From: Escherichia coli
Lineage (GTDB): Bacteria; Pseudomonadota; Gammaproteobacteria; Enterobacterales; Enterobacteriaceae
Assembly (NCBI RefSeq): GCF_016026235.1
Contig: NZ_CP065613.1
Length of the DNA: 64,000 bases
Reading direction: 5' to 3' (one strand)
Made by a program: the position numbers and the translations under genes
Notes under the pieces: generated by a model
Database searches by the model: none
What the model was told of the DNA's origin: nothing
Seen by the model: the letters and a program-made list of their open reading frames with translations, nothing else
In this document: positions 2,993-45,209 of the stretch, piece by piece
How the letters are laid out: the number at the start of each line of letters is the position of its first letter
How positions within the stretch are numbered: the stretch's first letter is position 1

Positions 2993-3326
2993 TGTATAAG
3001 TCTTGGAAATGGGCATCAAAAAGAGATAAATTGTTCTCGATCAAATTAGCTGAAAGGCGGTAATTTAGCTATAAATTGATCACCGTCGAAAAATGCAAAT
3101 TTGCTTCAACAAAAACCTGTTTATTGTAAGGATTTTGCGGCGTAATATATACGTGGGATCAATTTGAGTTTTTATTAACATGTTTGCAACCTTTCTTTAC
3201 GCCGTTTTTGTGTGCATTCACATGGTATGATGAAAGTGTTCAAACAAATTTCTATTGGGGCATGCGTGTGACCCTTTCTAACGGGGTTCACTCTCGGAGT
3301 CTTCATGCGATGAGCAAGGAGTCATG

Positions 3327-4895
3327 ATGTTAGATATAGTCGAACTGTCGCGCTTACAGTTTGCCTTGACCGCGATGTACCACTTCCTTTTTGTGCCACT
3401 GACGCTCGGTATGGCGTTCCTGCTGGCCATTATGGAAACGGTCTACGTCCTCTCCGGCAAACAGATTTATAAAGATATGACCAAGTTCTGGGGCAAGTTG
3501 TTTGGTATCAACTTCGCTCTGGGTGTGGCTACCGGTCTGACCATGGAGTTCCAGTTCGGGACTAACTGGTCTTACTATTCCCACTATGTAGGGGATATCT
3601 TCGGTGCGCCGCTGGCAATCGAAGGTCTGATGGCCTTCTTCCTCGAATCCACCTTTGTAGGTCTGTTCTTCTTCGGTTGGGATCGTCTGGGTAAAGTTCA
3701 GCATATGTGTGTCACCTGGCTGGTGGCGCTCGGTTCAAACCTGTCCGCACTGTGGATTCTGGTTGCGAACGGCTGGATGCAAAACCCAATCGCGTCCGAT
3801 TTCAACTTTGAAACTATGCGTATGGAGATGGTGAGCTTCTCCGAGCTGGTGCTTAACCCGGTTGCTCAGGTGAAATTCGTTCACACTGTAGCGTCTGGTT
3901 ATGTGACTGGCGCGATGTTCATCCTCGGTATCAGCGCATGGTATATGCTGAAAGGTCGTGACTTCGCCTTCGCTAAACGCTCCTTTGCTATCGCTGCCAG
4001 CTTCGGTATGGCTGCTGTTCTGTCTGTTATTGTTCTGGGTGATGAATCCGGCTACGAAATGGGCGACGTGCAGAAAACCAAACTGGCTGCTATTGAAGCC
4101 GAGTGGGAAACGCAACCTGCGCCTGCTGCCTTTACTCTGTTCGGCATTCCTGATCAGGAAGAGGAGACGAACAAATTTGCGATTCAGATCCCTTACGCAC
4201 TGGGCATCATTGCAACGCGTTCCGTGGATACCCCGGTTATCGGCCTGAAAGAGCTGATGGTGCAGCATGAAGAACGCATTCGTAACGGGATGAAGGCGTA
4301 CTCTCTGCTCGAACAACTGCGTTCTGGTTCTACCGACCAGGCGGTTCGTGACCAGTTCAATAGCATGAAGAAAGACCTCGGTTACGGTCTGCTGCTGAAA
4401 CGCTATACGCCAAACGTGGCTGATGCGACTGAAGCGCAGATTCAACAGGCAACCAAAGACTCCATCCCGCGTGTAGCGCCGCTGTACTTTGCGTTCCGTA
4501 TCATGGTGGCGTGTGGCTTCCTGCTTCTGGCAATCATCGCGCTCTCTTTCTGGAGTGTCATCCGCAACCGCATTGGCGAGAAAAAATGGCTTCTGCGCGC
4601 CGCGCTGTACGGTATTCCGCTGCCGTGGATTGCTGTAGAAGCGGGCTGGTTCGTGGCTGAATATGGCCGCCAACCGTGGGCTATCGGTGAAGTGCTGCCG
4701 ACAGCTGTGGCGAACTCGTCACTGACCGCAGGCGATCTCATCTTCTCAATGGTGCTGATTTGCGGCCTGTATACTCTGTTCCTGGTGGCAGAATTGTTCT
4801 TAATGTTCAAGTTTGCACGCCTCGGCCCAAGCAGCCTGAAAACCGGTCGCTATCACTTTGAGCAGTCTTCCACGACTACTCAGCCGGCACGCTAA
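3327..4895 (+). CDS. cydA: cytochrome bd-I ubiquinol oxidase subunit I
   Basis: 522-aa translation [29 protein letters not shown]... recognised as CydA; ORF-track start 3324 is one codon upstream of the likely start. Confidence 0.97.
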
Positions 4896-4910: not shown

Positions 4911-6050
4911 ATGATCGATTATGAAGTATTGCGTTTTATCTGGTGGCTGCTGGTTGGCGTTCTGCTGATTGGTTTTGCAGTCACTGACGGTTTCGACATG
5001 GGGGTGGGCATGCTCACCCGTTTCCTCGGTCGTAACGACACCGAGCGTCGAATTATGATTAACTCCATTGCACCACACTGGGACGGTAACCAGGTTTGGC
5101 TGATCACCGCGGGCGGCGCACTCTTTGCTGCCTGGCCGATGGTCTATGCCGCTGCGTTCTCCGGCTTCTATGTGGCGATGATCCTCGTGCTGGCGTCTTT
5201 GTTCTTCCGTCCGGTCGGTTTTGACTACCGCTCCAAGATTGAAGAAACCCGCTGGCGTAACATGTGGGACTGGGGCATCTTCATTGGTAGCTTCGTTCCG
5301 CCGCTGGTAATTGGTGTAGCGTTCGGTAACCTGTTGCAGGGCGTACCGTTCAACGTTGATGAATATCTGCGTCTGTACTACACCGGTAACTTCTTCCAGT
5401 TGCTCAACCCGTTCGGCCTGCTGGCAGGCGTGGTGAGCGTAGGGATGATCATTACTCAGGGCGCAACCTATCTGCAAATGCGTACCGTGGGCGAACTGCA
5501 CCTGCGTACCCGTGCAACGGCTCAGGTGGCTGCGCTGGTGACACTGGTCTGTTTCGCACTGGCTGGCGTATGGGTGATGTACGGTATCGATGGTTATGTC
5601 GTGAAATCGACAATGGACCATTACGCAGCCTCTAACCCACTGAATAAAGAAGTGGTTCGTGAAGCTGGCGCATGGCTGGTTAACTTCAACAACACGCCAA
5701 TTCTGTGGGCTATTCCGGCACTGGGTGTGGTTCTGCCGCTGCTGACCATCCTGACTGCACGTATGGATAAAGCCGCGTGGGCGTTTGTGTTCTCCTCCCT
5801 GACGCTGGCCTGCATCATCCTGACAGCCGGTATCGCAATGTTCCCGTTTGTGATGCCGTCCAGCACCATGATGAACGCAAGTCTGACAATGTGGGATGCA
5901 ACTTCCAGCCAGCTGACGCTTAACGTCATGACCTGGGTTGCGGTGGTTCTGGTACCGATCATTCTGCTCTACACCGCCTGGTGTTACTGGAAAATGTTCG
6001 GTCGTATCACCAAAGAAGATATTGAACGTAACACCCACTCTCTGTACTAA
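4911..6050 (+). CDS. cydB: cytochrome bd-I ubiquinol oxidase subunit II
   Basis: 379-aa translation MIDYEVLRFIWWLLVGVLLIGFAVTDGFDMGVGML... recognised as CydB. Confidence 0.97.
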   Translation: MIDYEVLRFIWWLLVGVLLIGFAVTDGFDMGVGMLTRFLGRNDTERRIMINSIAPHWDGNQVWLITAGGALFAAWPMVYAAAFSGFYVAMILVLASLFFRPVGFDYRSKIEETRWRNMWDWGIFIGSFVPPLVIGVAFGNLLQGVPFNVDEYLRLYYTGNFFQLLNPFGLLAGVVSVGMIITQGATYLQMRTVGELHLRTRATAQVAALVTLVCFALAGVWVMYGIDGYVVKSTMDHYAASNPLNKEVVREAGAWLVNFNNTPILWAIPALGVVLPLLTILTARMDKAAWAFVFSSLTLACIILTAGIAMFPFVMPSSTMMNASLTMWDATSSQLTLNVMTWVAVVLVPIILLYTAWCYWKMFGRITKEDIERNTHSLY

Positions 6051-6064
6051 GTAAGGAGCTAAAA

Positions 6065-6178
6065 ATGTGGTATTTCGCATGGATTCTGGGAACGCTTCTT
6101 GCCTGTTCGTTTGGGGTAATCACCGCGCTGGCGCTTGAACACGTCGAATCAGGCAAAGCCGGTCAAGAAGACATCTGA
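6065..6178 (+). CDS. cydX: cytochrome bd-I small subunit CydX (37 aa), below ORF-track size cutoff
   Basis: ATG 6 nt after AAGGAG; translation MWYFAWILGTLLACSFGVITALALEHVESGKAGQEDI; single TM helix; position right after cydB. Confidence 0.85.
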   Translation: MWYFAWILGTLLACSFGVITALALEHVESGKAGQEDI

Positions 6179-6471
6179 TGAGTAAGATTATCGCGACCTT
6201 GTATGCGGTAATGGACAAGCGCCCCCTGCGGGCGCTTTCCTTCGTGATGGCGCTTCTGTTAGCAGGATGTATGTTTTGGGACCCATCTCGTTTTGCCGCG
6301 AAGACCAGTGAACTGGAAATCTGGCATGGTTTATTGCTGATGTGGGCCGTCTGTGCTGGTGTGATTCACGGCGTGGGCTTTCGTCCGCAGAAGGTTCTTT
6401 GGCAAGGGATTTTTTGCCCATTGCTTGCCGATATTGTTCTCATTGTCGGGCTGATTTTCTTCTTCTTTTAA
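6178..6471 (+). CDS. ybgE: small inner-membrane protein YbgE (cyd operon)
   Basis: 97-aa hydrophobic ORF overlapping the cydX stop; conserved synteny cydABX-ybgE. Confidence 0.85.
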   Translation: MSKIIATLYAVMDKRPLRALSFVMALLLAGCMFWDPSRFAAKTSELEIWHGLLLMWAVCAGVIHGVGFRPQKVLWQGIFCPLLADIVLIVGLIFFFF

Positions 6472-6492: not shown

Positions 6493-6524
6493 TTATGGGC
6501 CGCTCCAGGCCCATAAATTTTTAC
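6493..6524 (+). terminator. rho-independent terminator after the cyd operon
   Basis: hairpin atgggcc-gctcca-ggcccat followed by aaatttttac. Confidence 0.5.
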
Positions 6525-10911: not shown

Positions 10912-11457
<546 letters not shown>

Positions 11458-11466
11458 GAGAATTGC

Positions 11467-12258
11467 ATGAGCAGTAACTTCAGACATCAACTATTGAGTC
11501 TGTCGTTACTGGTTGGTATAGCGGCCCCCTGGGCCGCTTTTGCTCAGGCACCAATCAGTAGTGTCGGCTCAGGCTCGGTCGAAGACCGCGTCACTCAACT
11601 TGAGCGTATTTCTAATGCTCACAGCCAGCTTTTAACCCAACTCCAGCAACAACTTTCTGATAATCAATCCGATATTGATTCCCTGCGTGGTCAGATTCAG
11701 GAAAATCAGTATCAACTGAATCAGGTCGTGGAGCGGCAAAAGCAGATCCTGTTGCAGATCGACAGCCTCAGCAGCGGTGGTGCAGCGGCGCAATCAACCA
11801 GCAGCGATCAAAGCGGTGCGGCGGCATCAACGACGCCGACAGCTGATGCTGGTACTGCGAATGCTGGCGCGCCGGTGAAAAGCGGTGATGCAAACACGGA
11901 TTACAATGCAGCTATTGCGCTGGTGCAGGATAAATCCCGCCAGGATGACGCAATGGTGGCATTTCAGAATTTCATCAAAAATTACCCTGATTCAACTTAC
12001 CTGCCAAACGCCAATTATTGGCTGGGTCAGTTAAACTACAACAAGGGTAAAAAAGATGATGCGGCGTACTATTTTGCTTCGGTAGTGAAAAACTATCCGA
12101 AGTCACCAAAGGCTGCTGATGCGATGTTTAAAGTCGGCGTCATCATGCAGGACAAAGGTGACACCGCAAAAGCGAAAGCCGTATACCAGCAGGTTATCAG
12201 TAAATACCCTGGTACTGATGGCGCTAAACAGGCACAAAAACGTCTGAACGCGATGTAA
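11467..12258 (+). CDS. cpoB: cell division coordinator CpoB (YbgF), TPR protein
   Basis: 263 aa with signal peptide, coiled-coil region and TPR-like C-terminus; last gene of the tol-pal cluster. Confidence 0.9.
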   Translation: MSSNFRHQLLSLSLLVGIAAPWAAFAQAPISSVGSGSVEDRVTQLERISNAHSQLLTQLQQQLSDNQSDIDSLRGQIQENQYQLNQVVERQKQILLQIDSLSSGGAAAQSTSSDQSGAAASTTPTADAGTANAGAPVKSGDANTDYNAAIALVQDKSRQDDAMVAFQNFIKNYPDSTYLPNANYWLGQLNYNKGKKDDAAYYFASVVKNYPKSPKAADAMFKVGVIMQDKGDTAKAKAVYQQVISKYPGTDGAKQAQKRLNAM

Positions 12259-12422: not shown

Positions 12423-12498
12423 GGGTCGTTAGCTCAGTTGGTAGAGCAGTTGACTTTTAATCAATTGGTCGCAGGTTCGAATCCTGCACGACCCACCA
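12423..12498 (+). tRNA. lysT: tRNA-Lys (anticodon UUU)
   Basis: GGGTCGTTAGCTCAGTTGGTAGAGCAGTTGACTTTTAATCAATTGGTCGCAGGTTCGAATCCTGCACGACCCACCA; cloverleaf and CCA end. Confidence 0.97.
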
Positions 12499-12525
12499 AT
12501 CGCTAAGGTGGAAGCGGTAGTAAAA

Positions 12526-12598
12526 CGTGAAGGATAACGTTGCATCAGCAACGGCCCGAAGGGCGAGACGAAGTCGAGTCATCCTGCACGACCCACCA
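12526..12598 (+). repeat. spacer repeat copy 1 ending in a duplicated tRNA-Lys 3'-end fragment (..gtcatcctgcacgacccacca)
   Basis: about 72 nt, near-identical to copies at 12815-12885 and 13119-13189; last ~19 nt match the T-arm/acceptor 3' end of tRNA-Lys. Confidence 0.8.
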
Positions 12599-12633
12599 CT
12601 AACATAGTTAGTTGTAGTATCCAGCGTAGTATT

Positions 12634-12709
12634 GGGTGATTAGCTCAGCTGGGAGAGCACCTCCCTTACAAGGAGGGGGTCGGCGGTTCGATCCCGTCAT
12701 CACCCACCA
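12634..12709 (+). tRNA. valT: tRNA-Val (anticodon UAC)
   Basis: GGGTGATTAGCTCAGCTGGGAGAGCACCTCCCTTACAAGGAGGGGGTCGGCGGTTCGATCCCGTCATCACCCACCA. Confidence 0.97.
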
Positions 12710-12711
12710 CC

Positions 12712-12787
12712 GGGTCGTTAGCTCAGTTGGTAGAGCAGTTGACTTTTAATCAATTGGTCGCAGGTTCGAATCCTGCACGACCCACCA
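12712..12787 (+). tRNA. lysW: tRNA-Lys (anticodon UUU)
   Basis: identical to lysT copy. Confidence 0.97.
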
Positions 12788-12814
12788 GTTTTAGCATCGA
12801 AGACAGATGTTAAG

Positions 12815-12885
12815 CGTGTAGGATAACGTTGCGTCAGCAACGGCCCGTAGGGCGAGCGAAGCGAGTCATCCTGCACGACCCACCA
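12815..12885 (+). repeat. spacer repeat copy 2 with tRNA-Lys 3'-end fragment
   Basis: cgtgtaggataacgttgcgtcagcaacggcccgtagggcgagcgaagcgagtcatcctgcacgacccacca. Confidence 0.8.
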
Positions 12886-12936
12886 CTAATTACGGTGGGT
12901 TCGGTGGAAGTAGTTTGTAGTATCCAGCGCAGTATC

Positions 12937-13012
12937 GGGTGATTAGCTCAGCTGGGAGAGCACCTCCCTTACAAGGAGGGGGTCGGCGGTTCGATCCCGT
13001 CATCACCCACCA
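12937..13012 (+). tRNA. valZ: tRNA-Val (anticodon UAC)
   Basis: identical to valT copy. Confidence 0.97.
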
Positions 13013-13015
13013 CTC

Positions 13016-13091
13016 GGGTCGTTAGCTCAGTTGGTAGAGCAGTTGACTTTTAATCAATTGGTCGCAGGTTCGAATCCTGCACGACCCACCA
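13016..13091 (+). tRNA. lysY: tRNA-Lys (anticodon UUU)
   Basis: identical to lysT copy. Confidence 0.97.
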
Positions 13092-13118
13092 ATTTTAACA
13101 TCAAACTCAGATGTTAAG

Positions 13119-13189
13119 CGTGAAGGATAACGTTGCGCCAGCAACGGCCCGAAGGGCGAGCGAAGCGAGTCATCCTGCACGACCCACCA
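13119..13189 (+). repeat. spacer repeat copy 3 with tRNA-Lys 3'-end fragment
   Basis: cgtgaaggataacgttgcgccagcaacggcccgaagggcgagcgaagcgagtcatcctgcacgacccacca. Confidence 0.8.
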
Positions 13190-13237
13190 ATCTTAAAGAT
13201 TGGCCCCGAGTAAAAATCTTTCAGGTAACACCCGTAT

Positions 13238-13313
13238 GGGTCGTTAGCTCAGTTGGTAGAGCAGTTGACTTTTAATCAATTGGTCGCAGGTTCGAATCCT
13301 GCACGACCCACCA
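13238..13313 (+). tRNA. lysZ: tRNA-Lys (anticodon UUU)
   Basis: identical to lysT copy. Confidence 0.97.
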
Positions 13314-13346
13314 TCCTGAATGATTAAAGCAGCATAATCCCGCAAG

Positions 13347-13422
13347 GGGTCGTTAGCTCAGTTGGTAGAGCAGTTGACTTTTAATCAATTGGTCGCAGGT
13401 TCGAATCCTGCACGACCCACCA
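13347..13422 (+). tRNA. lysQ: tRNA-Lys (anticodon UUU)
   Basis: identical to lysT copy. Confidence 0.97.
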
Positions 13423-26376: not shown

Positions 26377-26544
<168 letters not shown>

Positions 26545-26667
26545 TTCCCTGAATGCCCGCTTAGTCGGGCATTTTCTTTTTCTCAACTTCCTGCTTTTCC
26601 TGCCGATATTTTTTCTTATCTACCTCACAAAGGTTAGCAATAACTGCTGGGAAAATTCCGAGTTAGT

Positions 26668-30053: not shown

Positions 30054-30288
30054 GGCGTATTCCAGATTAAGGTTAAGAATTTTCGTCTGCGCGAATGGTA
30101 CACCGATACCACTATCGGACAAAATTCTGCGTTTTAATTCAGCATTCACCGCCAAAAGCGACTAATTTTAGCTGTTACAGTCAGTTGCTAAATGCAAAGG
30201 AGCATTCATGAAGCAAATGCCTCTTAGGAATTAATCCTTTATAATCAATTAATTACAAGTGGCGTTTCGAAATCATTCGAAATTAATT

Positions 30289-31335
30289 CTAAATGTCTTT
30301 CCATTCCCTCCCTCGTCCGTCACGGTATTTATCCGTCATGCTGGATGAACGATGTCCAAGGAGCGCCTGAGTGAAATCACTGCCTTTTTCTGCTGAGTGC
30401 AGGCGACCGGATAAACTTCGGATTTCATGAAATGGCGGTGGGTCACCTTCCCATTTCAATCCGGATGTGTCTCGGGCAATCCTGAACTGTGCTGCGATTG
30501 TCCTGGCTGTCTTCCCTCCGAGTAACTTTTCGTTTTTACCGTTTATTTTTTTCAAGTTATCCAGTACATCGGCAAGTGTTAAATTCAATCTGGAAATCGT
30601 GGTGGGGAGAGAAATGCGAATTTTTGCCCCTGTTTTTTGTTGTTCCACGTATAGCCTGCCATCTCTTATATCCTCCCATCTCATAGCCGCCAGATCTCCT
30701 TCGCGCTGTCCTGTTACCAGTGCAAGATCCATGCAAAGGCCGAACCATTCGTTCTGGACGTCTGCTATTTTCCTGATTAACAGATACTCGTCAATTAACA
30801 GTCGACTGCGCTTCACTTCAGTTCTGAATGGCTTGGTTGCAGAAGCTGGATCTTCTTCGGCAAGACCAGAAGCTATAGCTGTTTTAAAAATGTCTGATAA
30901 AAGCGCCCTGTACTGGTTAGCAATAGCAAATTTACTCCCAGCTGCTCTGATTTCAAGAAAGCTGTACACCTCCCTTATGCCTATATTTTTAACCGGAACA
31001 CCACCAAAGTATTCACTTATGATTTTCAACCTCTGGTTGTGTCTTTTCATGGTGTTTGTGCTTAATTGTCTACGCTCTATTTCATTTCTGAAATTTAATA
31101 TCAGCTCGCAGAATAATGTTACGCTATTACCTTTTATTCTATCCAGTAAGCTTATATGTTGCGTGGATAATAATTCCATATTTGCCGCAATAGCCTCATT
31201 AACTGCAATTCTTTTGTCTCTTCCGATTCCAAACTCCCTTCCTGAACGTGGGTCACGATAACTATAATATCCACCTCGATTGTAAAGATTGGGTGGTAGA
31301 TCACGTGTGTTTGAGTTTCTTCTTCGTCCGGTCAT
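30289..31335 (-). CDS. int: lambda-type tyrosine integrase
   Basis: MTGRRRNSNTRDLPPNLYNRGGYYSYRDPRSGREFGIGRDKRIAV... closely parallels lambda Int; C-terminal HxxR...Y catalytic region (LLGHRSSSMTDKYRD). Confidence 0.93.
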   Translation of the reverse strand: MTGRRRNSNTRDLPPNLYNRGGYYSYRDPRSGREFGIGRDKRIAVNEAIAANMELLSTQHISLLDRIKGNSVTLFCELILNFRNEIERRQLSTNTMKRHNQRLKIISEYFGGVPVKNIGIREVYSFLEIRAAGSKFAIANQYRALLSDIFKTAIASGLAEEDPASATKPFRTEVKRSRLLIDEYLLIRKIADVQNEWFGLCMDLALVTGQREGDLAAMRWEDIRDGRLYVEQQKTGAKIRISLPTTISRLNLTLADVLDNLKKINGKNEKLLGGKTARTIAAQFRIARDTSGLKWEGDPPPFHEIRSLSGRLHSAEKGSDFTQALLGHRSSSMTDKYRDGRGREWKDI

Positions 31336-31525
31336 TTCTGATTCTCTGCAAAAGCCCGCCAGTCGTTTGAGGTGTAATTTTTTTTGCTGACTCATGAAAT
31401 AAATATTCACGCCCATCCTTTATCGGTGGTGGAAAAATCTTACATTCTCGCACCCAGCGGCGAACCGTTTCTGGGCTTCGTGGACGTAACTGACGGGCGT
31501 TCCATTCTTTGAGTGTCAAATACAT
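31301..31525 (-). CDS. xis: excisionase
   Basis: MYLTLKEWNARQLRPRSPETVRRWVRECKIFPPPIKDGREYLFHESA... near-identical architecture to lambda Xis; overlaps int start. Confidence 0.92.
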   Translation of the reverse strand: MYLTLKEWNARQLRPRSPETVRRWVRECKIFPPPIKDGREYLFHESAKKITPQTTGGLLQRIRNDRTKKKLKHT

Positions 31526-31629
31526 GTCATATTCCTGTAATATGACCGCCAGTAAATATACAGAATACTGGCGGGCGTGGTTGATTTTTAATAATCAGCT
31601 ATGAAGTTCTAATTTTGATATAATGCAAC

Positions 31630-31824
31630 TCACGAGGACAGAAGTTTCTCGCAATTAAAATTTATCAGTTTTACTTTCTGCTCTCTGGAAACGCCTGCTT
31701 CTTTTTTCCCTGAGAGCATTTTTTCGCATTCTGATTTCGTTAGTTTAGATTTTGAATATCTTGTCCAGCTGGTAGGAGAACCACCTTCCTTTTCAATAGT
31801 GGCTGTAATTTTATACATGAACAC
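31630..31824 (-). CDS. hypothetical phage protein (64 aa)
   Basis: ORF in the leftward early operon between the ATPase gene and xis. Confidence 0.4.
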   Translation of the reverse strand: MFMYKITATIEKEGGSPTSWTRYSKSKLTKSECEKMLSGKKEAGVSREQKVKLINFNCEKLLSS

Positions 31825-31868
31825 CTACATTAATATTTTCAAAAACCGTGTTCAAAATGCACTTGGTT

Positions 31869-32966
31869 TTACACCGGAATATTCTCATCGTATCCTGCTT
31901 GTTGCGTTTCGTTTTGTGTTTGTGGATCCGGGAATGCATATTCAACGCCTTCCAGTTCAATCCATAGTGCATTACGACCAGCTTTGATTGTCGGCCAGTC
32001 CATACCTTTGATTCTTTCCCATGAGCGGGAGGTGAATGTTTTTTCCAGCAAATCAGCTTTTGCGCGTTTGGCGTCGTTACTGGTGCCCCCATGGTGCTTG
32101 TTGAGCAACTCGATAATTTCATCAAGTGCGATTTCTTTTGCACGCTTTTCTTTTAGCCATGTCGGTGTACCGTCGTTGGCAAATAATTCACTGTTATCCC
32201 GTGAGGTATCGATGCCGAGGTGTTCACCTCCCAGGTTAAGAAACTCGATATGAGGAAGAAAGTTTTTAAATGTTGGGTTTGAAAATACCTGTCCATCAAT
32301 ACGGGTGGAGCGATCTTTTAGTATTCTGGCGGTGCGCCACACCTGACCGGTTTCTATGTTCATTTGCTTCTCCATCTGGATCAGGATGGAGGGTTCATAA
32401 CCGGTTTCTGTTTCTGCTTTCATTTTTATACCGGTTTTTGCCAACTGGCGTTTGCCATCATCACCTTCGAAAAAGTCATACTCATATCCTGCACGCCCGC
32501 ACATAATAATGTGCGCCTGACTGTTAACAAATCGATCGGTAAAGCGTCGCCACTCCTGTTTGAGCCACGCCCAGTCTGAAAATTCCAGTCCTCGTTTACG
32601 GTTTCGGCGTCTGGCATACTCGTCGCATAATCCGGTCCAGAAGTGACTGATGGAGTCGATGATCATTACGGAACCGCTGCTTTCCGCTTCATTAATGGCT
32701 TCAAGCAGATCAACAAACGAGCGGGTTTTTGCCGTAAATAATTCGATATTTTCCGCATCAAAGCGGGGTTTAACCCAGTCAGAGCCTGTTTCTGTGTCCA
32801 GAAACATTACCGGGCGGTTACCAGCTTCAATTCCCCGTTGCCGCATAAGCATTACCAGACCAATAGCCAGTTCGCTTGCTGTGTAGGTTTTGCCGTCGCC
32901 AGCAAACCCCATAATTCCTGCTTTTAGATAGGCCTGTGTGTTTATTGCTCGTTGAAAAAGCGCCAT
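31869..32966 (-). CDS. AAA_24-type (Sak4/RecA-like) phage ATPase
   Basis: Walker A GFAGDGKTYTA and Walker B VMIIDSISHFW motifs; 365 aa; sits where recT/bet lies in Rac/lambda. Confidence 0.55.
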   Translation of the reverse strand: MALFQRAINTQAYLKAGIMGFAGDGKTYTASELAIGLVMLMRQRGIEAGNRPVMFLDTETGSDWVKPRFDAENIELFTAKTRSFVDLLEAINEAESSGSVMIIDSISHFWTGLCDEYARRRNRKRGLEFSDWAWLKQEWRRFTDRFVNSQAHIIMCGRAGYEYDFFEGDDGKRQLAKTGIKMKAETETGYEPSILIQMEKQMNIETGQVWRTARILKDRSTRIDGQVFSNPTFKNFLPHIEFLNLGGEHLGIDTSRDNSELFANDGTPTWLKEKRAKEIALDEIIELLNKHHGGTSNDAKRAKADLLEKTFTSRSWERIKGMDWPTIKAGRNALWIELEGVEYAFPDPQTQNETQQAGYDENIPV

Positions 32967-32971
32967 AGATT

Positions 32972-33271
32972 TTAGTCCTCCAAATCAATATCAACCTGGT
33001 GGTGGGCAATGGTTTCAGCCATGTACCGGATGTGTTCTGCCATGCGCTCCTGAAACTCAACATCATCATCAAATGCGTGGCTGATTGCCTGTTTATTGGC
33101 ACCGTGGCGTTGCAAATGGTCGATGCAGAGCGATTCAAACAGGTGCTGAGGCAGACCTTTTTCCAGGTCGTCCGCCAGTTCCGTTTCTTTTTCTTCACGA
33201 ACGATCTGCTGGTAGTGGCGAGCCCATGCCATTTCTTCAATACGATCAAAAATCGGGTAAGCGCTCATCAC
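32972..33271 (-). CDS. hypothetical acidic phage protein (99 aa)
   Basis: ORF between the RecE-like gene and the ATPase gene, same strand, tightly packed. Confidence 0.4.
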
Positions 33272-35204
33272 TGGTCACTCCAAAATTTTCAAGCTTGTTG
33301 GCAATCATCATTGCGATGTCAGGGATTGCAGGCGCATAGGCTATGCACGCAGGATTCGCACATAAACCGTAAACCGCCGCAATCAACACCTGTTTTTTCC
33401 AGTTGAGTTCATCTTCGCCAGTTTCATTATTGCTATCATTATGCTGATCGCTGCCAGCGTTCTCCGGTAACAAATCATCAGCTTTTTCCGTTTTCTTCGG
33501 CTCTTCTTCCTGTGCTTCATCTGGTTTTTTTTCGTCAAAAGTTTCCTGATAAGTTGCGTCTCCCATCACCGCGCCACAGTCAGGGCAGTTATCCTCGCCA
33601 GTCTGATTGCAGGGTGTTCCCTCCTCCGGTTCGCTGTTCTGGTGCTGTTTATCTTCAGTCTGTCGCACTTCATTTTCCGTTTTTTTGACTTCATTTGAGG
33701 AGATATGATGACCGGGAATCCATTTCGGATCATTCGGGTCGCTAATCCCTTCAACAAATTCTCCGCGAGAGGCAGCCAGTAATTTGTCTGCATCGACAGG
33801 ATTTTTGGGCGGAATGTTTTTCCGGGCTTCATGGAGTTCTGCCCGCAGTTCCTGATATTTCGCATCAACAGCATTTACCTGTGACTGAGCATCCAGCGGC
33901 TGCGTGTCCTGATGATGTTCAGTTGCATCCGGTTCCACTGTTTCAGCCGTTGCCTGTTCATCTGCCATTGCGCAAGATGGTTGCGGTTTTTCTTCATCAT
34001 CCTGTTTTCCTTCTTCTGTTACTCGCTGCGGCATCGGGGCAGAGGAGCGACCGCAGGCAATATCCACGATTTCCGGATCAGGGTTGGCATGATCGGTTTC
34101 AGTCAGTACTTTGTTCAGATATTCAGTGACGTGTGCGGGGATGACCTCGATCCCAATTGGTGCTTCTTTCACGGACGCAACCACGATGGCGCGGGAATAA
34201 TCCAGCCCGCCAGGCATGGTGATGAATTTGTCGCGGAAAACAGAAAAGGGTGGTTTATTTTCAGCGATAATTTCCTCAATGCGTTTAGCGTGTGCCGGAT
34301 GAAGGTTATAGATGTCCACGTCCATTGAACGGGCCAGTACGCCAGTGGCTACATCGCGCGTCAGTGACGTCAGATCGTGGACGAAACCTTCGCCGCGATC
34401 GGTGAGGTTCCCGCCGCCAGCATTAGCACCGGAAGTCGTGCGAGTGATGCGTGAAACACGATTCCCTTTTCGCCATTCTTTTGTCAGAAGACCGCGATCA
34501 ATGTGTTCGGTATCCAGCCAGGCTGAAATGAAATTCTTAAATTCATAGGGCTGATGTTTTTTCGTGATAGAGAAAACTGCCTTAATTGCATCAGTCAGGC
34601 GGAGCAGGGCGGCATTATCCAGAGTTGTCGGTTCTGCCATGCCGCGTATGGCCAACAGCAGATTCTGGACATAGCTGTTTTCCTGATCCATCTCAAGAGC
34701 AGTAATGTGTTTGCGTTGTTCACGGGTGGCATGATGCAGGTATTTCCGATCCCCGGCAGCATACGTAAAAATGTGCAGAAGACGCTGTGTGAACCGCAAA
34801 GTGGCTACAGAGACTTCGCAATCCTGGCAATCCTCGTGGGCGTCTGCCTGCGCGTTTTCTTCCTGGCCTCCCGCCAGTTCTTTGGTTTCTTGAGCATTAT
34901 CCTGGTGGTGAACGTCGTCTGGCGCTGCTCCCGGTTTTAGTTCCCATGTCATGGAGTCTTTGCTGAGTTGATAGCGTTCACTCCAGGTAAAATCGATCTC
35001 ACCTTCAGGGGGAAGGTCATTAACGACAGGAAAATTTGTGGCAACAGCTTTAAAATAGTTGCTCAGTTTTTTACCTGACTTAACGAGCAGATAGTCCAGA
35101 GTGGTGCTGGTCGATTCAAAATCGTCGCTTGCCCACAGGACGACGTCAGGTTCACCGGATGATTTTTTCGCTTTCCGTAACAGGAAGAGTGGTTTTGTGC
35201 TCAT
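33246..35204 (-). CDS. RecE (exonuclease VIII) N-terminal-region homolog; C-terminal nuclease domain apparently absent
   Basis: N-terminus [31 protein letters not shown]... and internal block [35 protein letters not shown]...[64 protein letters not shown] match my recollection of Rac RecE; 652 aa vs about 866 aa for RecE. Confidence 0.55.
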
Positions 35205-35332
35205 TGTTTTTTAACCTCAACTCAGATTAAAATTACTGCGAGTGATGAATAAATGTCCCAGGTTCTTCACTCAGGCCTGCACACTGTGCAGGCTTTCTTT
35301 TTTTCAGATTTCACCTTTTAATTTCATTGCAA

Positions 35333-35578
35333 TCAGAGTTGCCAGAAATTCGGCTTTTTTTCTGCGGGCAGATTATTTCCGATGTAAACCAGGCACATTT
35401 TTGTGGCACCTTCAACAAGAGTTTTAAAGTTTCCTGATAGACCGTCGATATCAACCACAGTGAATGGGGTTTCTTTATTTTCTGTTTTAATTACGTAGCC
35501 AATATGCTTTCCTTCCAGGTAAACCTCGTGAACAATGTTATCAGTAGTTGCAACAGTGGCTTCATAATTGGTGTTCAT
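35333..35578 (-). CDS. hypothetical phage protein (81 aa)
   Basis: ORF with GGAG RBS before MNTNYEATVATT... Confidence 0.4.
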   Translation of the reverse strand: MNTNYEATVATTDNIVHEVYLEGKHIGYVIKTENKETPFTVVDIDGLSGNFKTLVEGATKMCLVYIGNNLPAEKKPNFWQL

Positions 35579-35652
35579 GTTTTTCTCCTTAATTAAGGTT
35601 GAGCGAATCCCTGCCATTGCTGGCATAAATTCAGTTTCGAATAGTCAGTTAA

Positions 35653-35934
35653 TTAAAGTTCGTGTGCCATCTGGTCTTTTTCGGCGCAGATTTCACTACA
35701 ATATTTGCGTTTCTTTTTCCTCATCATGGTTCCGTGCATGTAAATAAGTTCAGCAGTGTAAGCCTTATCAGGGCTTACTTGTCTGTCACACAGGCCATAA
35801 GCACAGGGAATTAAATCGGGATCACCTTTCTGCTGGAGGGTTTTTTTGATTATCCATAACAATTTTTTGATTCCGGTGTGTGTTATGGTCTGCTGAGGTG
35901 CAGAGGTAAAACAATAATCAAGCATAGGGTTCAT
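35653..35934 (-). CDS. hypothetical zinc-ribbon protein (93 aa)
   Basis: two Cys pairs (CAYGLC ... CSEIC). Confidence 0.4.
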   Translation of the reverse strand: MNPMLDYCFTSAPQQTITHTGIKKLLWIIKKTLQQKGDPDLIPCAYGLCDRQVSPDKAYTAELIYMHGTMMRKKKRKYCSEICAEKDQMAHEL

Positions 35935-35950
35935 ATCCGTAGCTCCATTT

Positions 35951-36505
35951 TTATTTTAAAGAAAGTAATTGTTCCACAGTCATATTTTTAATTGCGCCCC
36001 GGTTAACAAGAGTCCATCCCTGTTTTTCCAGATAAAACCGGAAAGTCTCCAGGGTACAGACCAGTGCGCCATCAGGAACGGTTTCGGTGAATTCGACATT
36101 GCCGAATTTGTCGAAGTGAACAACCAGAGTGCGACCATCACCCGGAATCATCTTGTCAGCAGGTGGGGTGTTATTCTGGCGCAGTTCGGCCTCCATGCGG
36201 TCGAACTCAGCAATGTAGGCTTCCTTGAATGCGGCGGCTTTTTTGCCAGTGAAGCCCATCATCAGGAAAACGAAGCCGTTTTTGGTGATTTGGTACATTG
36301 GGCGTTTTTCGCCTTTGGCGTCGGTATAGGTGACGGGCTTAAAATTAAGCCGGTTAAACTCCGGCGAGCATTCGAGAGTTTCGATCTTCTGAATAACGTT
36401 TTTGTGCATTTTCCGGAAGAACTTCGCAACCGCAACAGACGTAGTGACAGCGCGACCATTTTCGATGGTTACGTCAGGGTGAGAAAGGGTAAGGATAGTA
36501 GCCAT
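35951..36505 (-). CDS. Rha-family phage regulatory protein
   Basis: MATILTLSHPDVTIENGRAVTTSVAVAKFFRKMHKNVIQKIETL... matches Rha domain pattern; GAGG RBS before this Met; ORF is open further upstream to 36799. Confidence 0.5.
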   Translation of the reverse strand: MATILTLSHPDVTIENGRAVTTSVAVAKFFRKMHKNVIQKIETLECSPEFNRLNFKPVTYTDAKGEKRPMYQITKNGFVFLMMGFTGKKAAAFKEAYIAEFDRMEAELRQNNTPPADKMIPGDGRTLVVHFDKFGNVEFTETVPDGALVCTLETFRFYLEKQGWTLVNRGAIKNMTVEQLLSLK

Positions 36506-36821
36506 GATGGCAGCCTCGATAGTCAGTTTAAATAACTCACCACCAGAGGTAGCAATCTCATGGGTGGTGAGACGCACAGGGTTGCTACAACCGGTGACTA
36601 CCGAAACCGGCCAGCCTTGCGGCTGCCCTGCACGCCCCACCATAATCTGAATGTGGCTGTGCTTGACGCATAAAAAAACCGCCTGAGCGCGGTTATGCGC
36701 AGTAGTCATCGTCGGGGTAGCAATCCCGGCCCCCGTTTTATGAGGTGCAGGTGCACTATAATTCCACCCGTTCTGGTTTTCAATAGCTACATTCAACATT
36801 TTCTCTCACCTTTCATCACCG

Positions 36822-36976
36822 AAGTGAATTTTGTGATGCGGTGCCTGGTGCCTCCAGGTGACGTTAACCAGTTAACAATTACAGTCGGCTTTCCCACCCA
36901 AACCAATAAGGACTAACATGACTTTTAACTGTGCCGCGTGCGCTTAGCCGCATTCACCGCATCACAAAATTCACTT
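36822..36976. repeat. 22-bp perfect inverted repeat pair separated by about 111 bp
   Basis: aagtgaattttgtgatgcggtg at 36822-36843 and its exact reverse complement caccgcatcacaaaattcactt at 36955-36976; the intervening DNA holds smaller palindromes (cctggtgcctccagg, gttaaccagttaac). Confidence 0.8.
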
Positions 36977-37206
36977 TAAAAAGGGCGGACATCAGCCAGC
37001 AATTAAACCGATGCCGCCAACTGGTACTTCACACAGCAATGTCGTTATTTACAACCGGAAGCGCACTCCCACCATTTAAATTTCACAGACAAGACCGACT
37101 CTTTATGGATACCGGAAATGCGCCTTCGTGTTGTGCCCGGTTTTATTTCACCACCTCCGGGCTTTGGTGGTATCTTTACTGAAGTTCTCACACAACCAGT
37201 AAGGAA

Positions 37207-37503
37207 ATGAATATGCCAACGTATCTCGCCAGAGTAGAACTATATAATGCTGAGCCAGAGGATTACGAAGGGCTTCATAAATATATGCTCTCACTAGGAT
37301 TCAGGAGAACGATCCCCCATGGAGATGGTTCGTATAATCAACTCCCGGACGGAACTTATGTTTCCGAAAAGGGCGGTGATATTTATCAAATTCGCAGCCA
37401 GATATCTGACTATGCAGACCGACTATCCGGGTATCGCGCGTCTGTTTTTGTTTGCGAATTCAGTCAATGCGCATGGTATTTATACCCCGCCAAGACCCGG
37501 TGA
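37207..37503 (+). CDS. hypothetical small soluble protein on opposite strand (cargo gene at the sieB/rex-equivalent position)
   Basis: 98 aa, MNMPTYLARVELYNAEPEDYEGLHKYMLSLGF...; AGGAAA RBS; antisense to the flanking leftward genes; its 3' end slightly overlaps a convergent gene. Confidence 0.5.
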   Translation: MNMPTYLARVELYNAEPEDYEGLHKYMLSLGFRRTIPHGDGSYNQLPDGTYVSEKGGDIYQIRSQISDYADRLSGYRASVFVCEFSQCAWYLYPAKTR

Positions 37504-37692
37504 ATATCCTGCACGGCCTTCTGCTTTGTAGAAGGCTTCTTCGCTATCATAATCGCCAGATTCCAGCGCTTCTTTAGCCAGCCAGATGCGTGCCCCAGTG
37601 CCTGCATTTGGCTCCAGTTGCTGGAGGCGTTTTGCATCTTCTGGGAGTAGAGCGATAACGTGTTTTAATTCTGTCTCGTTCATTTTACTCAC
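37480..37692 (-). CDS. small phage protein, YdaG-like
   Basis: 70-aa ORF adjacent to the ydaF-like gene as in Rac. Confidence 0.4.
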   Translation of the reverse strand: MSKMNETELKHVIALLPEDAKRLQQLEPNAGTGARIWLAKEALESGDYDSEEAFYKAEGRAGYSPGLGGV

Positions 37693-37840
37693 CTGAATGT
37701 CTTCCCAACCAACGACGTGCGCCAGCTTCGGTTTTAAACGTTTTGCTTTTGGTATACGTCATGGCGGTGAATGTGCCGTCCTGGTTGGGGAACACGCCGT
37801 ACACCAGAGATTCGTTGTTGCCAAGATCGATAGTATTCAT
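37685..37840 (-). CDS. small phage protein, YdaF-like
   Basis: MNTIDLGNNESLVYGVFPNQDGTFTAMTYTKSKTFKTE... matches my recollection of Rac YdaF (51 aa). Confidence 0.5.
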   Translation of the reverse strand: MNTIDLGNNESLVYGVFPNQDGTFTAMTYTKSKTFKTEAGARRWLGRHSGE

Positions 37841-37894
37841 GTTGACCCCATTTCCCCTTAACGCCGGGGTAGCGGAACTGTTTGCTGAGAACAC

Positions 37895-38042
37895 CGTGCG
37901 GTGTCTTGATGAATGAAATTTAGAATAACCTAAGATGGGCGGCCAAGATTTTTATGTAGAAAAACCTAAGTTTTTTGATGTAAAAAACACAAGTGTTTGA
38001 AAGTTTGTGCTTTTTATTACAGGGTGTGGAGAAAAAAGGGGA
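37895..38042. promoter_or_regulatory. putative leftward early promoter/operator region (OL-like) downstream of the repressor gene
   Basis: direct repeats tagaataacctaag and tagaaaaacctaag sharing the CCTAAG half-site seen at OR. Confidence 0.4.
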
Positions 38043-38450
38043 TTATTTGTTTGCGCTTCTTTTGCGAGCTTTGAGTAGTTCTTCAAAAAGTTTGTTGAAA
38101 TTTTCAACTCGAGCACGCATCTCTGACAACAGGGCCTTTTGCTCTGACTCAGGCAGTGCGTCGAACAGTTGAAGTAACTCTTTTTGATCTTCTGTCAGAA
38201 TGGCTGGCTGATTATCCGGGATCGGTTCGCCTGGTTGTTTATCTTCATCCCCAAAAAGAAGCCAAGTCGGTGAGCACTGAAGCGCTTGGCTCAGTGCGAA
38301 TAATCTTTTCCCCGCCGGCTGTGTTTCATCTCTTTCCCATTGAGAAATTGTTACGTGAGCCACTTTGACCAGCTTACCTAATGCGGCCTGAGACAGTTTT
38401 AATTTTTTACGCCTATGTAAGAGGCGAGCACCGAAGGTTTCGTTTTTCAT
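38043..38450 (-). CDS. prophage repressor (HTH-XRE; cI/RacR-like)
   Basis: N-terminal HTH LSQAALGKLVKVAHVTISQWERDE; divergent from the cro-like gene. Confidence 0.75.
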   Translation of the reverse strand: MKNETFGARLLHRRKKLKLSQAALGKLVKVAHVTISQWERDETQPAGKRLFALSQALQCSPTWLLFGDEDKQPGEPIPDNQPAILTEDQKELLQLFDALPESEQKALLSEMRARVENFNKLFEELLKARKRSANK

Positions 38451-38526
38451 ATTAGGGAATTCTAATTTTTCTTGACTTAGGTTTCTCTACGATCTAGTTT
38501 CCTTAGGAAAATCTAAGGAGCTCGAT
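38451..38526. promoter_or_regulatory. divergent promoter/operator region (OR-like) between repressor and cro-like gene
   Basis: TTGACT -35-like hexamer and inverted repeat CCTTAG-gaaaat-CTAAGG. Confidence 0.5.
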
Positions 38527-38754
38527 ATGTTGAAAATTGATGCTATAGCGTTTTTTGGCAGCAAAACAAAGCTTGCCAATGCCGCAGGAGTTAGGCTGGC
38601 AAGCATTGCTGCATGGGGGGAACTGGTTCCTGAAGGTCGCGCGATGCGCCTGCAAGAGGCATCTGGCGGGGAACTTCAGTACGACCCCAAAGTTTATGAC
38701 GAATATCGTAAGGCAAAACGACCTGGGAAGGTGATTCATGAAAATCAGGCATGA
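38527..38754 (+). CDS. Cro/YdaS-like small DNA-binding protein
   Basis: 75 aa, MLKIDAIAFFGSKTKLANAAGVRLASIAAWGE...; first rightward gene. Confidence 0.6.
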   Translation: MLKIDAIAFFGSKTKLANAAGVRLASIAAWGELVPEGRAMRLQEASGGELQYDPKVYDEYRKAKRPGKVIHENQA

Positions 38755-39160
38755 GCACATCGAATCAGTGCTGTTAGCCCTGGCAGCCGAAAAAGGGCAG
38801 GCGTGGGTCGCTAACGCAATTACTGAAGAATATCTGCGGCAGGGGGGCGGCGAATTGTCTCTGGTACCAGGCAAGGACTGGAACAATCAGCAGAATATCT
38901 ATCACCGTTGGTTGAAAGGTGAAACGAAAGCGCAAAGGGAAAAAATTCAGAAACTGATCCCTGTGGTTCTGGCAATTCTTCCGCGTGAGCTGCGTCACCG
39001 ACTCTGTATCTTCGATACCCTGGAACGCCGTGCATTACTGGCGGCGCAGGAAGCGTTGAGTACGGCAATTGATGCGCATGATGATGCTGTCCAGGCCGTT
39101 TACCGGAAAGCACATTTCAGCGGTGGTGGGTCGCCCGGCGATTCTGTCGTAGTGCATTGA
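38738..39160 (+). CDS. YdaT-like protein (CII-position)
   Basis: 140 aa, MKIRHEHIESVLLALAAEKGQAWVANAITEEYLRQGGGELSLVPGKDWNNQQNIYHRWLKGETKAQREKIQKLIP... resembles Rac YdaT. Confidence 0.6.
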   Translation: MKIRHEHIESVLLALAAEKGQAWVANAITEEYLRQGGGELSLVPGKDWNNQQNIYHRWLKGETKAQREKIQKLIPVVLAILPRELRHRLCIFDTLERRALLAAQEALSTAIDAHDDAVQAVYRKAHFSGGGSPGDSVVVH

Positions 39161-39237
39161 TTGAAATTAATCGTGCCGGATTGTTTTGTTCGGTATCAGT
39201 TAAATGTAACGCTGCGAGCGTTACAAGGTGAAAACAA

Positions 39238-40026
39238 ATGGCTTCAAACTGGATAAAGCTCGAGGTTATTACGCCGGATAAGCCGGAAATATTCAGGCTT
39301 GCTGAGATTCTGAATATTGATCCAGATGCCGCATTAGGGAAGGTTATTCGCTTCTGGGCATGGGCGGATCAACAAATGATAGACGGTAATGCAGATTGTA
39401 ACGCTCGCGGCGTTACAAAAAGTGCAATAGATCGCATCACTTTTATGTCTGGTTTTGCTGATGCGTTAATTCAGGTTGGATGGCTGGTCGAAAATGACGG
39501 TGGGCTTTCTCTACCTAACTTTGAACGTCATAACGGAAAAAGCTCTAAAAAACGGGCGGTTACAAACGAGCGAGTAACAAAAATACGCGAACTGAAACGA
39601 AAAGGTAACGCTGCCAGCGTTACACAAACGGATCAAAAAGCGTTACCAGAGGAAGAGGAAGAGGAAGATCTAAATACTGATCTCCCCCTAAATCCCCCTC
39701 GCCAAAAACGAGCGTCTAAAAAATTCGAGCCGGAGGCTATTGAGCTGCCCGATTGGTTGCCGGAAACACTCTGGCATGAGTGGGTCCGGTTCAGACAGGC
39801 ATTGCGAAAACCGATTCGAACGGAGCAGGGCGCTAACGGGGCGATACGGGAACTGGAAAAATTCCGTCAGCAGGGTTTTACACCTGAGCAGGTGATTCGA
39901 CACAGCATCGCCAATGAATACCAGGGCCTGTTCGCGCCGAAAGGTGTTCGGCCTGAGACGTTGCTCCGACAGGTTAACACCGTCTCGTTGCCGGACAGTG
40001 CGATCCCGCCAGGCTTCAGGGGGTAA
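39238..40026 (+). CDS. replication initiation/replisome organizer protein (YdaU/O-like)
   Basis: 262 aa with acidic linker; followed by DnaC-like gene. Confidence 0.55.
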   Translation: MASNWIKLEVITPDKPEIFRLAEILNIDPDAALGKVIRFWAWADQQMIDGNADCNARGVTKSAIDRITFMSGFADALIQVGWLVENDGGLSLPNFERHNGKSSKKRAVTNERVTKIRELKRKGNAASVTQTDQKALPEEEEEEDLNTDLPLNPPRQKRASKKFEPEAIELPDWLPETLWHEWVRFRQALRKPIRTEQGANGAIRELEKFRQQGFTPEQVIRHSIANEYQGLFAPKGVRPETLLRQVNTVSLPDSAIPPGFRG

Positions 40027-40032
40027 CGGACC

Positions 40033-40779
40033 ATGAAAAATATTGCGACAGGCGGCGTTCTGGAACGCATCCGCCGACTGACCCCGCCACATGTAACCGC
40101 CCCATTCAGAACGGTAGCGGAGTGGCGCGAGTGGCAACTTGCTGAAGGCCAGAAACGTAGCGAGGAGATCAACCGCCTGAATCGCCAGTTGCGGGTGGAA
40201 AAAATTCTGAATCGCTCAGGCATCCAGCCGTTGCACCGTAAATGCTCGTTTGCGAATTACCAGGTGCAGAACGACGGCCAGCGATACGCGTTAAGCCAGG
40301 CGAAATCCATCGCCGATGAACTGATGACCGGGTGTACAAATTTTGCGTTCAGCGGAAAACCTGGTACCGGGAAGAATCACTTAGCGGCAGCTATCGGGAA
40401 TCGCCTGCTGAAAGACGGTCAGACAGTGATTGTGGTTACCGTGGCTGATGTTATGAGCGCCCTGCACGCCAGCTATGACGACGGGCAGTCAGGCGAAAAA
40501 TTTTTGCGGGAGCTGTGCGAAGTGGATCTGCTGGTTCTTGATGAAATTGGCATTCAGCGCGAGACGAAAAACGAGCAGGTGGTGCTGCACCAGATTGTTG
40601 ATCGCCGGACAGCGTCGATGCGCAGCGTGGGGATGCTGACAAACCTGAACTATGAGGTGATGAAAACATTGCTCGGCGAGCGGGTGATGGATCGCATGGT
40701 CATGAACGGCGGGCGCTGGGTGAATTTTAACTGGGAGAGCTGGCGTCCGAATGTTAGCCATTCGAGGGTTGTTAAGTAG
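40033..40779 (+). CDS. DnaC-like helicase loader ATPase (YdaV-like)
   Basis: Walker A GKPGTGKNHLAAAIG, Walker B LLVLDEIG. Confidence 0.75.
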   Translation: MKNIATGGVLERIRRLTPPHVTAPFRTVAEWREWQLAEGQKRSEEINRLNRQLRVEKILNRSGIQPLHRKCSFANYQVQNDGQRYALSQAKSIADELMTGCTNFAFSGKPGTGKNHLAAAIGNRLLKDGQTVIVVTVADVMSALHASYDDGQSGEKFLRELCEVDLLVLDEIGIQRETKNEQVVLHQIVDRRTASMRSVGMLTNLNYEVMKTLLGERVMDRMVMNGGRWVNFNWESWRPNVSHSRVVK

Positions 40780-40793
40780 TTTCAGGAGGATTT

Positions 40794-41216
40794 ATGGCGA
40801 AACCTTTTACTCCCGAACAGCGGGAAGAACTGAAGACGCGAATTGTGGAACTCGTGCATCAGGACGGTCGGGTCACGATTCGGCAGTTGTCAGATGAAAC
40901 AGGTATCAGTCGTGCGTCTGTCGGTCGCTTATGCATGGAACTGGTCGCAAGTGGTGATGTATATAATTCTGGCTACGGCTTATTCCCGTCTGAACAGGCT
41001 CGCAAGGACTGGCAAAGCGCCCGCAAAAAACTCTCGAGAGTAAAGGTGAGGAAACCGGTTGTTGTTGATCCGGACCTTATCTGGTCATTACCTGACGGAG
41101 AAATACGCCGCTACGACAGGCGCCTGAATATAATCTGTCGCGAGTGCCGGAAGAGCGAAGCTATGCAGCGTGTACTGGCTTTCTATCAGGGTAATTTTCA
41201 GGAGGCGATACTGTGA
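40794..41216 (+). CDS. hypothetical phage protein (140 aa)
   Basis: ORF with winged-helix-like N-terminus (IRQLSDETGISRASVGRL). Confidence 0.4.
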   Translation: MAKPFTPEQREELKTRIVELVHQDGRVTIRQLSDETGISRASVGRLCMELVASGDVYNSGYGLFPSEQARKDWQSARKKLSRVKVRKPVVVDPDLIWSLPDGEIRRYDRRLNIICRECRKSEAMQRVLAFYQGNFQEAIL

Positions 41217-41273
41217 ATGAAATTAGCTATCAGGCTTCAATTACCGCTGGCATTCGCATCAAAGGAGAGGAGC

Positions 41274-41630
41274 ATGGAAATAAAACCAGAAGATGAGTTA
41301 AGCAATATCGTTTTATTTCCGATAAAAGAGGATGACCCTCGTAATCAGGTTAATTTTCTTTATGAGCCATCGGAAAGACCATATTGCCATCACGCCTCTG
41401 TACGGGTTGACGAAAAAGAGCGTCAGGTCCGCTGTAAAATCTGCGGTGCGGTTGTGGAGCCGTTTGACTGGATGCTCTCTGTGGCAAAAAGAGAAACCAG
41501 ACTGGCAGATGATGTAAGGCTATTGCGCCAGGAGGAACAGGAAAGGCGGAGAAATATAGAAAAGCTGATACAGATTGAGCGTAACGCGAAAGCGCGGATA
41601 CGCAGGGCGACAAAATCCAGAACTGAATAA
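41274..41630 (+). CDS. hypothetical zinc-ribbon phage protein
   Basis: GGAGAGGAG RBS before MEIKPEDEL; CHH...CKICG motif. Confidence 0.45.
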   Translation: MEIKPEDELSNIVLFPIKEDDPRNQVNFLYEPSERPYCHHASVRVDEKERQVRCKICGAVVEPFDWMLSVAKRETRLADDVRLLRQEEQERRRNIEKLIQIERNAKARIRRATKSRTE

Positions 41631-41777
41631 TTAAATTTAGCACTGTTAAAAATTTAATCCTTAACCGGAGGGATTTCTGCACCCTCAAATCATCAGGAGA
41701 CCGCCCGAAAGGGCGGGGAGCAGTCACACATCTGTTTCCGATAGCCCCGTTCTAATGCTACACTCTTTGATATTTTT

Positions 41778-42464
41778 ATGACCCCAATAAACATATTTAT
41801 GACAGTTGCTGATTTCAAACGGCCCAAATTGGAGCTCCCAAACGGGGCAAACAAACTACTACTGCACTCTTGCTGTGCTCCATGTTCCGGTGAGGTGATG
41901 GAGGCGCTTCAGGCCTCGGGAATCGACTACACCATCTTTTTCTACAACCCGAACATTCATCCTCAGAAAGAGTATTTAATTCGTAAGGATGAGAATATTC
42001 GCTTTGCTGAACAACACGGCGTGCCGTTTATTGATGCTGATTACGACACAGACAACTGGTTTGAACGAGCCAAAGGAATGGAATGGGAGCCCGAACGAGG
42101 GATCCGTTGCACCATGTGTTTTGACATGCGTTTTGAGCGGACAGCGCTGTACGCCGCTGAAAATGGTTTCAGTGTGATCAGCAGTTCACTGGGCATTTCA
42201 CGCTGGAAAAATATGCAGCAGGTTAACGACTGTGGGCGGCGAGCCGTCGCGCATTATCCGGGCATGGTGTACTGGGATTATAACTGGCGCAAGCAGGGCG
42301 GCTCGTCCCGTATGATTGAAATCAGCAAGCGCGAAAAATTCTATCAGCAGGAATATTGTGGCTGTGTGTATTCTCTGCGCGATACCAATCTACACCGCAA
42401 ATCTCAGGGACGCCCTCTTATCAAAATTGGTCAACTCCACTACGGTAAAGAAGAGAAGGAGTGA
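41778..42464 (+). CDS. queH: QueH-like (DUF208) epoxyqueuosine reductase family protein
   Basis: motifs [40 protein letters not shown] as I recall for QueH; 228 aa; located in the nin-like region. Confidence 0.6.
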
Positions 42465-42691
42465 TTTTATGGGGCACCTTTCTGATTGATTTCATATTGG
42501 CGAGGTAAGTAGAATGACTGCGGGTGCTTGAGGCTATCTGCTTCAGGCATGAACACCAAAAGGCAGATAGAGAAAAGCCCCAGTTAACATTACGCGTCCG
42601 GCAAGACGCTTAACATTAATCTGAGGCCAATTTCATGCTTTGCACATGTAGGTTAGCCTCTTACATGCCGAAAGGCAAGGAGAAGCAGGCT

Positions 42692-42847: not shown

Positions 42848-42919
42848 GAGTGACCGGGCGGGGAGCTGATCCCATCCCCGCCCACCTCTGATGTGTCAGG
42901 CATCCTCAACGCACCCGCA

Positions 42920-43384: not shown

Positions 43385-43422
43385 ACTCCTGCTGTGTAAC
43401 ACCGTGCCACCGGAGAAAGCCG

Positions 43423-45129: not shown

Positions 45130-45130
45130 A

Positions 45131-45207: not shown

Positions 45208-45209
45208 GC

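Follow-up and report, generated by a model that had tools for sequence, protein, structure and literature searches.

We suggest, with a probability of about 0.98, that the short open reading frame (ORF) at 6065..6178 encodes CydX, that the one at 26395..26544 encodes AcrZ, and that both proteins work as they do in E. coli K-12. The 64-kb stretch of DNA analysed here (the window) is made up of an E. coli-type chromosome segment and a rac-like prophage, the gene order being mngB-cydABX-ybgE-tol-pal ... gal-modFE-acrZ-modABC-ybhA, followed by the prophage. With 37 and 49 aa, both products lie under the 60-aa cutoff of the ORF listing, as a preliminary description of this DNA had pointed out. The names and coordinates which that description gave to the two genes are right and exact, as follows from identity to solved structures, family membership and synteny. 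In the curated K-12 reference cydX (b4515) and acrZ (b0762) are the only CDSs of <60 aa between mngB and ybhD. Both are well-studied, long-characterised E. coli genes, and there is nothing new in them. Sequence identity, family membership, synteny, Shine-Dalgarno (SD) motifs, hydrophobic helices and terminators were computed directly here, and translation, complex formation and phenotype are taken from published experiments.

The cydX gene (ybgT; 6065..6178, stop included, + strand) starts with ATG and encodes a 37-aa, single-helix subunit of the cytochrome bd-I oxidase. Upstream in the same operon lie cydA (3324..4895, +), an intact ORF of 523 codons, and cydB (4911..6050, +), a 379-aa ORF annotated under that name. 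The cydB stop (6050) and the cydX ATG (6065) are separated by a gap of 14 nt, which holds the SD sequence AAGGAGC of cydX (6052..6058, +) with its AGGAG ending 6 nt 5' of the ATG. On the other side, the TGA of cydX shares 1 nt with the ATG of ybgE (TGATG), and this overlap suggests translational coupling of the two genes. The product of ybgE (6178..6471, +; 97 aa) matches PF09600 with 116 bits and NF007881 with 185 bits. The cydABX-ybgE unit is closed by a terminator-like hairpin with a T-run at 6493..6516 (+), which is a consensus match only.

All 37 residues of the product are identical to chain X of PDB 6RKO (100%), and the same holds for 6RX4 and other bd-I structures. The protein matches PF08173 (YbgT_YccB) with 53.9 bits against a cutoff of 26.2, and its maximal Kyte-Doolittle mean over 17 residues, 2.12, fits one transmembrane (TM) helix. 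Residues Y3, W6 and G9, described as conserved in the N-terminal part of CydX (PMC6005532), are all present by direct reading (MWYFAWILG). The gene also shows the other traits of its family, namely a place in the cydAB operon directly 3' of cydB, a length of about 30-40 aa and one hydrophobic helix. At the DNA level cydX and its upstream junction have 0 nt differences from K-12 b4515. Protein, DNA, SD sequence, position after cydB and the 1-nt overlap with ybgE are thus the same as for K-12 CydX (YbgT, b4515; chain X of 6RKO and 6RX4), and no difference between the two was detected. All but one of 5426 complete E. coli genomes (5425) contain the 1.1-kb cydX region, and among the genomes listed, including those with 100% identity, the annotation reads cydB-cydX-ybgE-ybgC.

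The 37-aa ORF might be taken for the bd-II paralogue AppX/CbdX, or for another YbgT/YccB member, instead of CydX. The two proteins are indeed paralogues (PMC6005532), with the Pfam family YbgT_YccB and the single-helix architecture in common (PMC8951039), and residues 1-17 of the ORF give a weak match of 21.7 bits to the CbdX model NF011333. However, NF011333 requires 57 bits, far more than this score, and TIGR02106 ('cytochrome bd-I oxidase subunit CydX') is matched with 70.7 bits against a cutoff of 31.6. AppX/CbdX belongs to a different operon, appCBX, and the gene studied here comes after cydB and not after appB; its protein, moreover, is identical to the bd-I chain X. We consider the assignment to CbdX highly improbable and keep the assignment to CydX.

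The acrZ gene (ybhT; 26395..26544, stop included, +) likewise starts with ATG; its 49-aa product, with a single helix, is an accessory protein of the AcrB efflux pump. The genes modE and modA diverge from each other, 445 nt apart, and acrZ lies in this gap with the SD sequence GGAG (26385..26388, +) ending 6 nt 5' of its ATG. The ORF listing has an alternative TTG at 26389, two codons before this ATG; the protein of RefSeq and PDB, with 49 aa, is obtained from ATG 26395. A terminator-like hairpin with a T-run follows the gene (26551..26574, +; a hairpin/T-run match), which makes acrZ monocistronic and separate from modABC. A simple and crude scan upstream of acrZ found no sigma-70 consensus promoter.

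The 49 residues of the product are identical to chain C of PDB 4C48 (49/49, 100%) and to AcrZ in 4CDI, 5NC5 and 6SGS. PF10766 is matched with 102.9 bits (cutoff 26.2) over model positions 1-47 of 48, and no NCBIfam model matched the protein, unlike Pfam and PDB. The maximal Kyte-Doolittle mean over 17 residues is 2.98, again in agreement with one TM helix, and residue 16 is Pro by direct reading. Relative to K-12 b0762 the gene carries two differences, at nt 66 and nt 144, both of them synonymous and in the third codon position; in the modE-acrZ intergenic region there is no difference from K-12. These two substitutions are all that distinguishes the gene from K-12 acrZ (YbhT, b0762; 4C48, 5NC5, 6SGS), with which it shares the protein, the modE-acrZ-modA position, the upstream region and the terminator. 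The gene has the enterobacterial modE/modA synteny and is unlinked to acrAB. Of the 5426 complete E. coli genomes, 5391 have this region, with the annotation modE-acrZ-modA. What the preliminary description had said of the two genes together is borne out as well: it called the spacing of their ribosome-binding sites good, gave each product a single TM helix and regarded the positions after cydB and between modE and modA as conserved, and these are the positions annotated in K-12 and in nearly all complete E. coli genomes.

Short frames are common in DNA; counted as start-stop combinations of 15-59 aa, they number 2381 in the window. We applied a filter to ORFs of 15-59 aa, which requires an ATG, an SD match of at least 4 nt at a spacing of 4-11 nt and a 17-mer mean Kyte-Doolittle value of at least 2.0. 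It passes four ORFs in the 64 kb, namely cydX, acrZ, hok and a 35-aa ORF after Rz, against a shuffled expectation of 0.27 on average (range 0-2, 30 shuffles), a rough figure since the shuffles keep mononucleotide composition only. Neither the cydX nor the acrZ ORF contains a frameshift or a stop codon. In K-12 the translation signal was demonstrated by epitope-tag immunoblots, co-purification and structures (PMC6005532, PMC7267776, bioRxiv 10.1101/511675). The only point in favour of two untranslated chance frames in intergenic or operon-spacer DNA is the abundance of such frames, and this reading, to which we give next to no weight, is already refuted by the structures and immunoblots: the filter passes far more ORFs than expected, both products are identical to experimental structure chains and match curated families, the sole DNA differences from K-12 are synonymous, and K-12 translation was shown experimentally (PMC6005532; bioRxiv 10.1101/511675). 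Translation of cydX and acrZ in the present strain is to be expected from their identity with K-12.

For cydX we propose the following course of events. Its own SD sequence, located in the 14 nt that separate it from cydB, would serve for translation off the cydABX-ybgE mRNA. The product, 37 residues long, would form one TM helix packed on CydA, and the cytochrome bd-I quinol oxidase would depend on it for stable assembly and activity. In K-12 the identical protein is established as a physical part of bd-I and as required for its activity (PMC6005532, PMC8951039). SPA-tagged CydX, expressed from the chromosome, is visible on immunoblots and is purified together with TMPD oxidase activity, and deletion of cydX or the M1P substitution results in sensitivity to beta-mercaptoethanol, which is typical of lowered bd oxidase activity (PMC6005532, PMC4325964). 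In the structures the single TM helix of CydX lies against TM1, 4, 5, 6 and 7 of CydA near heme b558, and its role is mainly structural and stabilising (PMC8951039). This role may be carried over to the strain studied here from the identical K-12 protein.

In the case of acrZ, a monocistronic gene with its own SD sequence and terminator would give a 49-residue protein consisting of one bent TM helix. This helix would fit into a groove in the transmembrane domain of AcrB and would allosterically adjust how some substrates, chloramphenicol among them, are exported. Published work describes AcrZ as a 49-aa helix binding the transmembrane domain of AcrB, with Pro16, at the kink, needed for the binding; acrZ is co-regulated with acrAB, and its deletion makes the cells sensitive to chloramphenicol but not to erythromycin (PMC7267776). 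Tagged AcrZ is among the better-expressed small proteins of E. coli (bioRxiv 10.1101/511675). Binding to AcrB and the effect on resistance are presumed for this strain on the strength of the identical K-12 protein.

Several observations concern the core segment apart from these two genes. In strain 2013C-4974 (STEC), which is otherwise 100% identical, cydA is annotated as a frameshifted pseudogene (L001 3328..4895), unlike the intact cydA of the window; the frameshift may be due to a faulty assembly, or this strain may really have lost bd-I. The pal-cpoB junction carries a full-length match (142 bits; 11358..11496, +) to the Rfam CpoB/ybgF intercistronic RNA thermometer. The lysT-valT tRNA array (12423..13420, +; 7 tRNAs by Rfam) has a layout unlike both K-12 and 2013C-4974, and the genes downstream of it sit 123 nt further along than in 2013C-4974. 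Within the array there are three RtT-family repeats, each with a short TTG-start ORF beginning MRQQRP.../MHQQRP.... The known E. coli small proteins ybgU and ybgV were considered and set aside: their genes are located between gltA and sdhC, outside the window on its upstream side.

The rac-like prophage starts at about 30.2 kb (30156..64000) and adjoins ybhA, at the place taken by pgl in K-12; its far end lies beyond the window. It contains an integrase gene (30289..31416, -), recE/recT-type genes, RalR/RalA and a hok locus, as well as a QueH-like gene (41778..42464), a cluster of 4 tRNAs (45053..45360) and a DedA-family gene (47311..47823, -). Among complete genomes, E. coli FDAARGOS_943 is the closest, with 99.8% identity; its copy of the prophage is broken by IS600, IS1 and IS2, whereas the copy in the window is intact.

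The preliminary description expected that further prophage genes of under 60 aa, such as Sok-like RNAs or leader peptides, would also be missed by the ORF listing. For the hok/mok/sok locus, a DUF1391 gene and the RalA, C4 and isrK RNAs this holds; for leader peptides there was no support, none being annotated in the core region of the K-12 reference and none emerging from the short-ORF scans. In these scans 107, and then 83, short ORFs, either SD-bearing or intergenic, were compared with Pfam, NCBIfam and PHROGs. Besides cydX, acrZ and hok/mok, the only sub-60-aa ORF with a curated-family match in the scans is the DUF1391 family gene of the prophage early region (37685..37840, -; 51 aa; PF07151, 3.5e-28), which is annotated in FDAARGOS_943. 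The scans also gave several PHROG matches of unknown function among the short ORFs. A Gam match was rejected as a small gene, being the C-terminal piece of a 99-aa ORF.

The hok gene (42692..42847, +) encodes a 51-aa type I toxin of the hok family (PF01848, 4.3e-23; NF007279, 5.5e-15), annotated as hokD in FDAARGOS_943, and is enclosed by a mok-like ORF of 70 aa (42635..42847, +). The Rfam model RF01794 ('sok') matches at 42522..42697 (+) with 117 bits against a gathering score of 59. Since it shares the strand of hok and stops at that gene's ATG, the match corresponds to the leader/mok part of the hok mRNA. Sok RNA proper would run antisense inside 42522..42697, and strands assigned with RF01794 call for caution. 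The family match, the mok nesting and the RF01794 leader are common to the hok gene of the window and the Hok/Gef toxins (hokD of the Qin prophage and relatives). The locus is a separate prophage element, unrelated to CydX and AcrZ in sequence and function; hok shares with them only the character of a single-helix membrane protein of under 60 aa.

The RalA antitoxin RNA was located by Rfam at 31634..31812 (+; 216 bits). Opposite it lies a RalR-like ORF of 62-64 aa (31630..31824, -), so that this toxin-antitoxin pair is just over the 60-aa cutoff. Rfam also places the C4 antisense RNA at 36560..36647 (-) and the isrK RNA at 36672..36748 (-). Both are full matches within the first ~240 nt of a 282-aa ORF (35951..36799, -), which FDAARGOS_943 annotates as 'Rha family phage regulatory protein', and the isrK match ends in a terminator-like stem with a T7 run. 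The real start of the Rha-family ORF is probably the internal ATG 36504 (MATILTLSHPDV..., with GAGG 9 nt upstream), in which case its N-terminal ~98 codons would be RNA genes. The layout of isrK, C4 and Rha resembles P1 c4-icd-ant and Gifsy isrK-orf45-anrP.

Also passed by the filter is the hydrophobic 35-aa ORF (47207..47314, +), which directly follows the spanin gene Rz, the Rz1 lipoprotein frame being embedded in Rz at 46972..47178. It is unannotated in FDAARGOS_943 and shows a weak match to phrog_11822 (E=0.0006). Its first ~20 residues (MP..A.ILLIIL.I..C.Q) are common to a 50-aa 'conserved hypothetical' phage ORF, which follows Rz in 44 phage records, e.g. Sf6 gp65, epsilon34 gp67 and mEp460_058. 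Past ~20 residues the copy in the window diverges, and it ends beside the convergent DedA gene. By its sequence, the 35-aa ORF is a relative of this phage ORF that has diverged and become shorter. The 44 phage copies agree with one another at 90% identity or more, too little divergence for a test of coding constraint. Its role as a translated small membrane protein of the lysis cassette, with a possible influence on holin or spanin, is putative and rather doubtful. If this were true, the ORF of this prophage would be a shortened variant beside the convergent DedA gene. Among the small genes discussed here, this ORF is the only one not already catalogued.

The finding of cydX and acrZ serves as a quality check on the scan of the window and opens no biological question. 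It does illustrate that a 60-aa ORF cutoff hides real and important genes, at least four of them annotated here: cydX, acrZ, hok and the DUF1391 gene. Of the first two, CydX is required by a respiratory oxidase that is being studied as a drug target, and AcrZ modulates the principal multidrug efflux pump.
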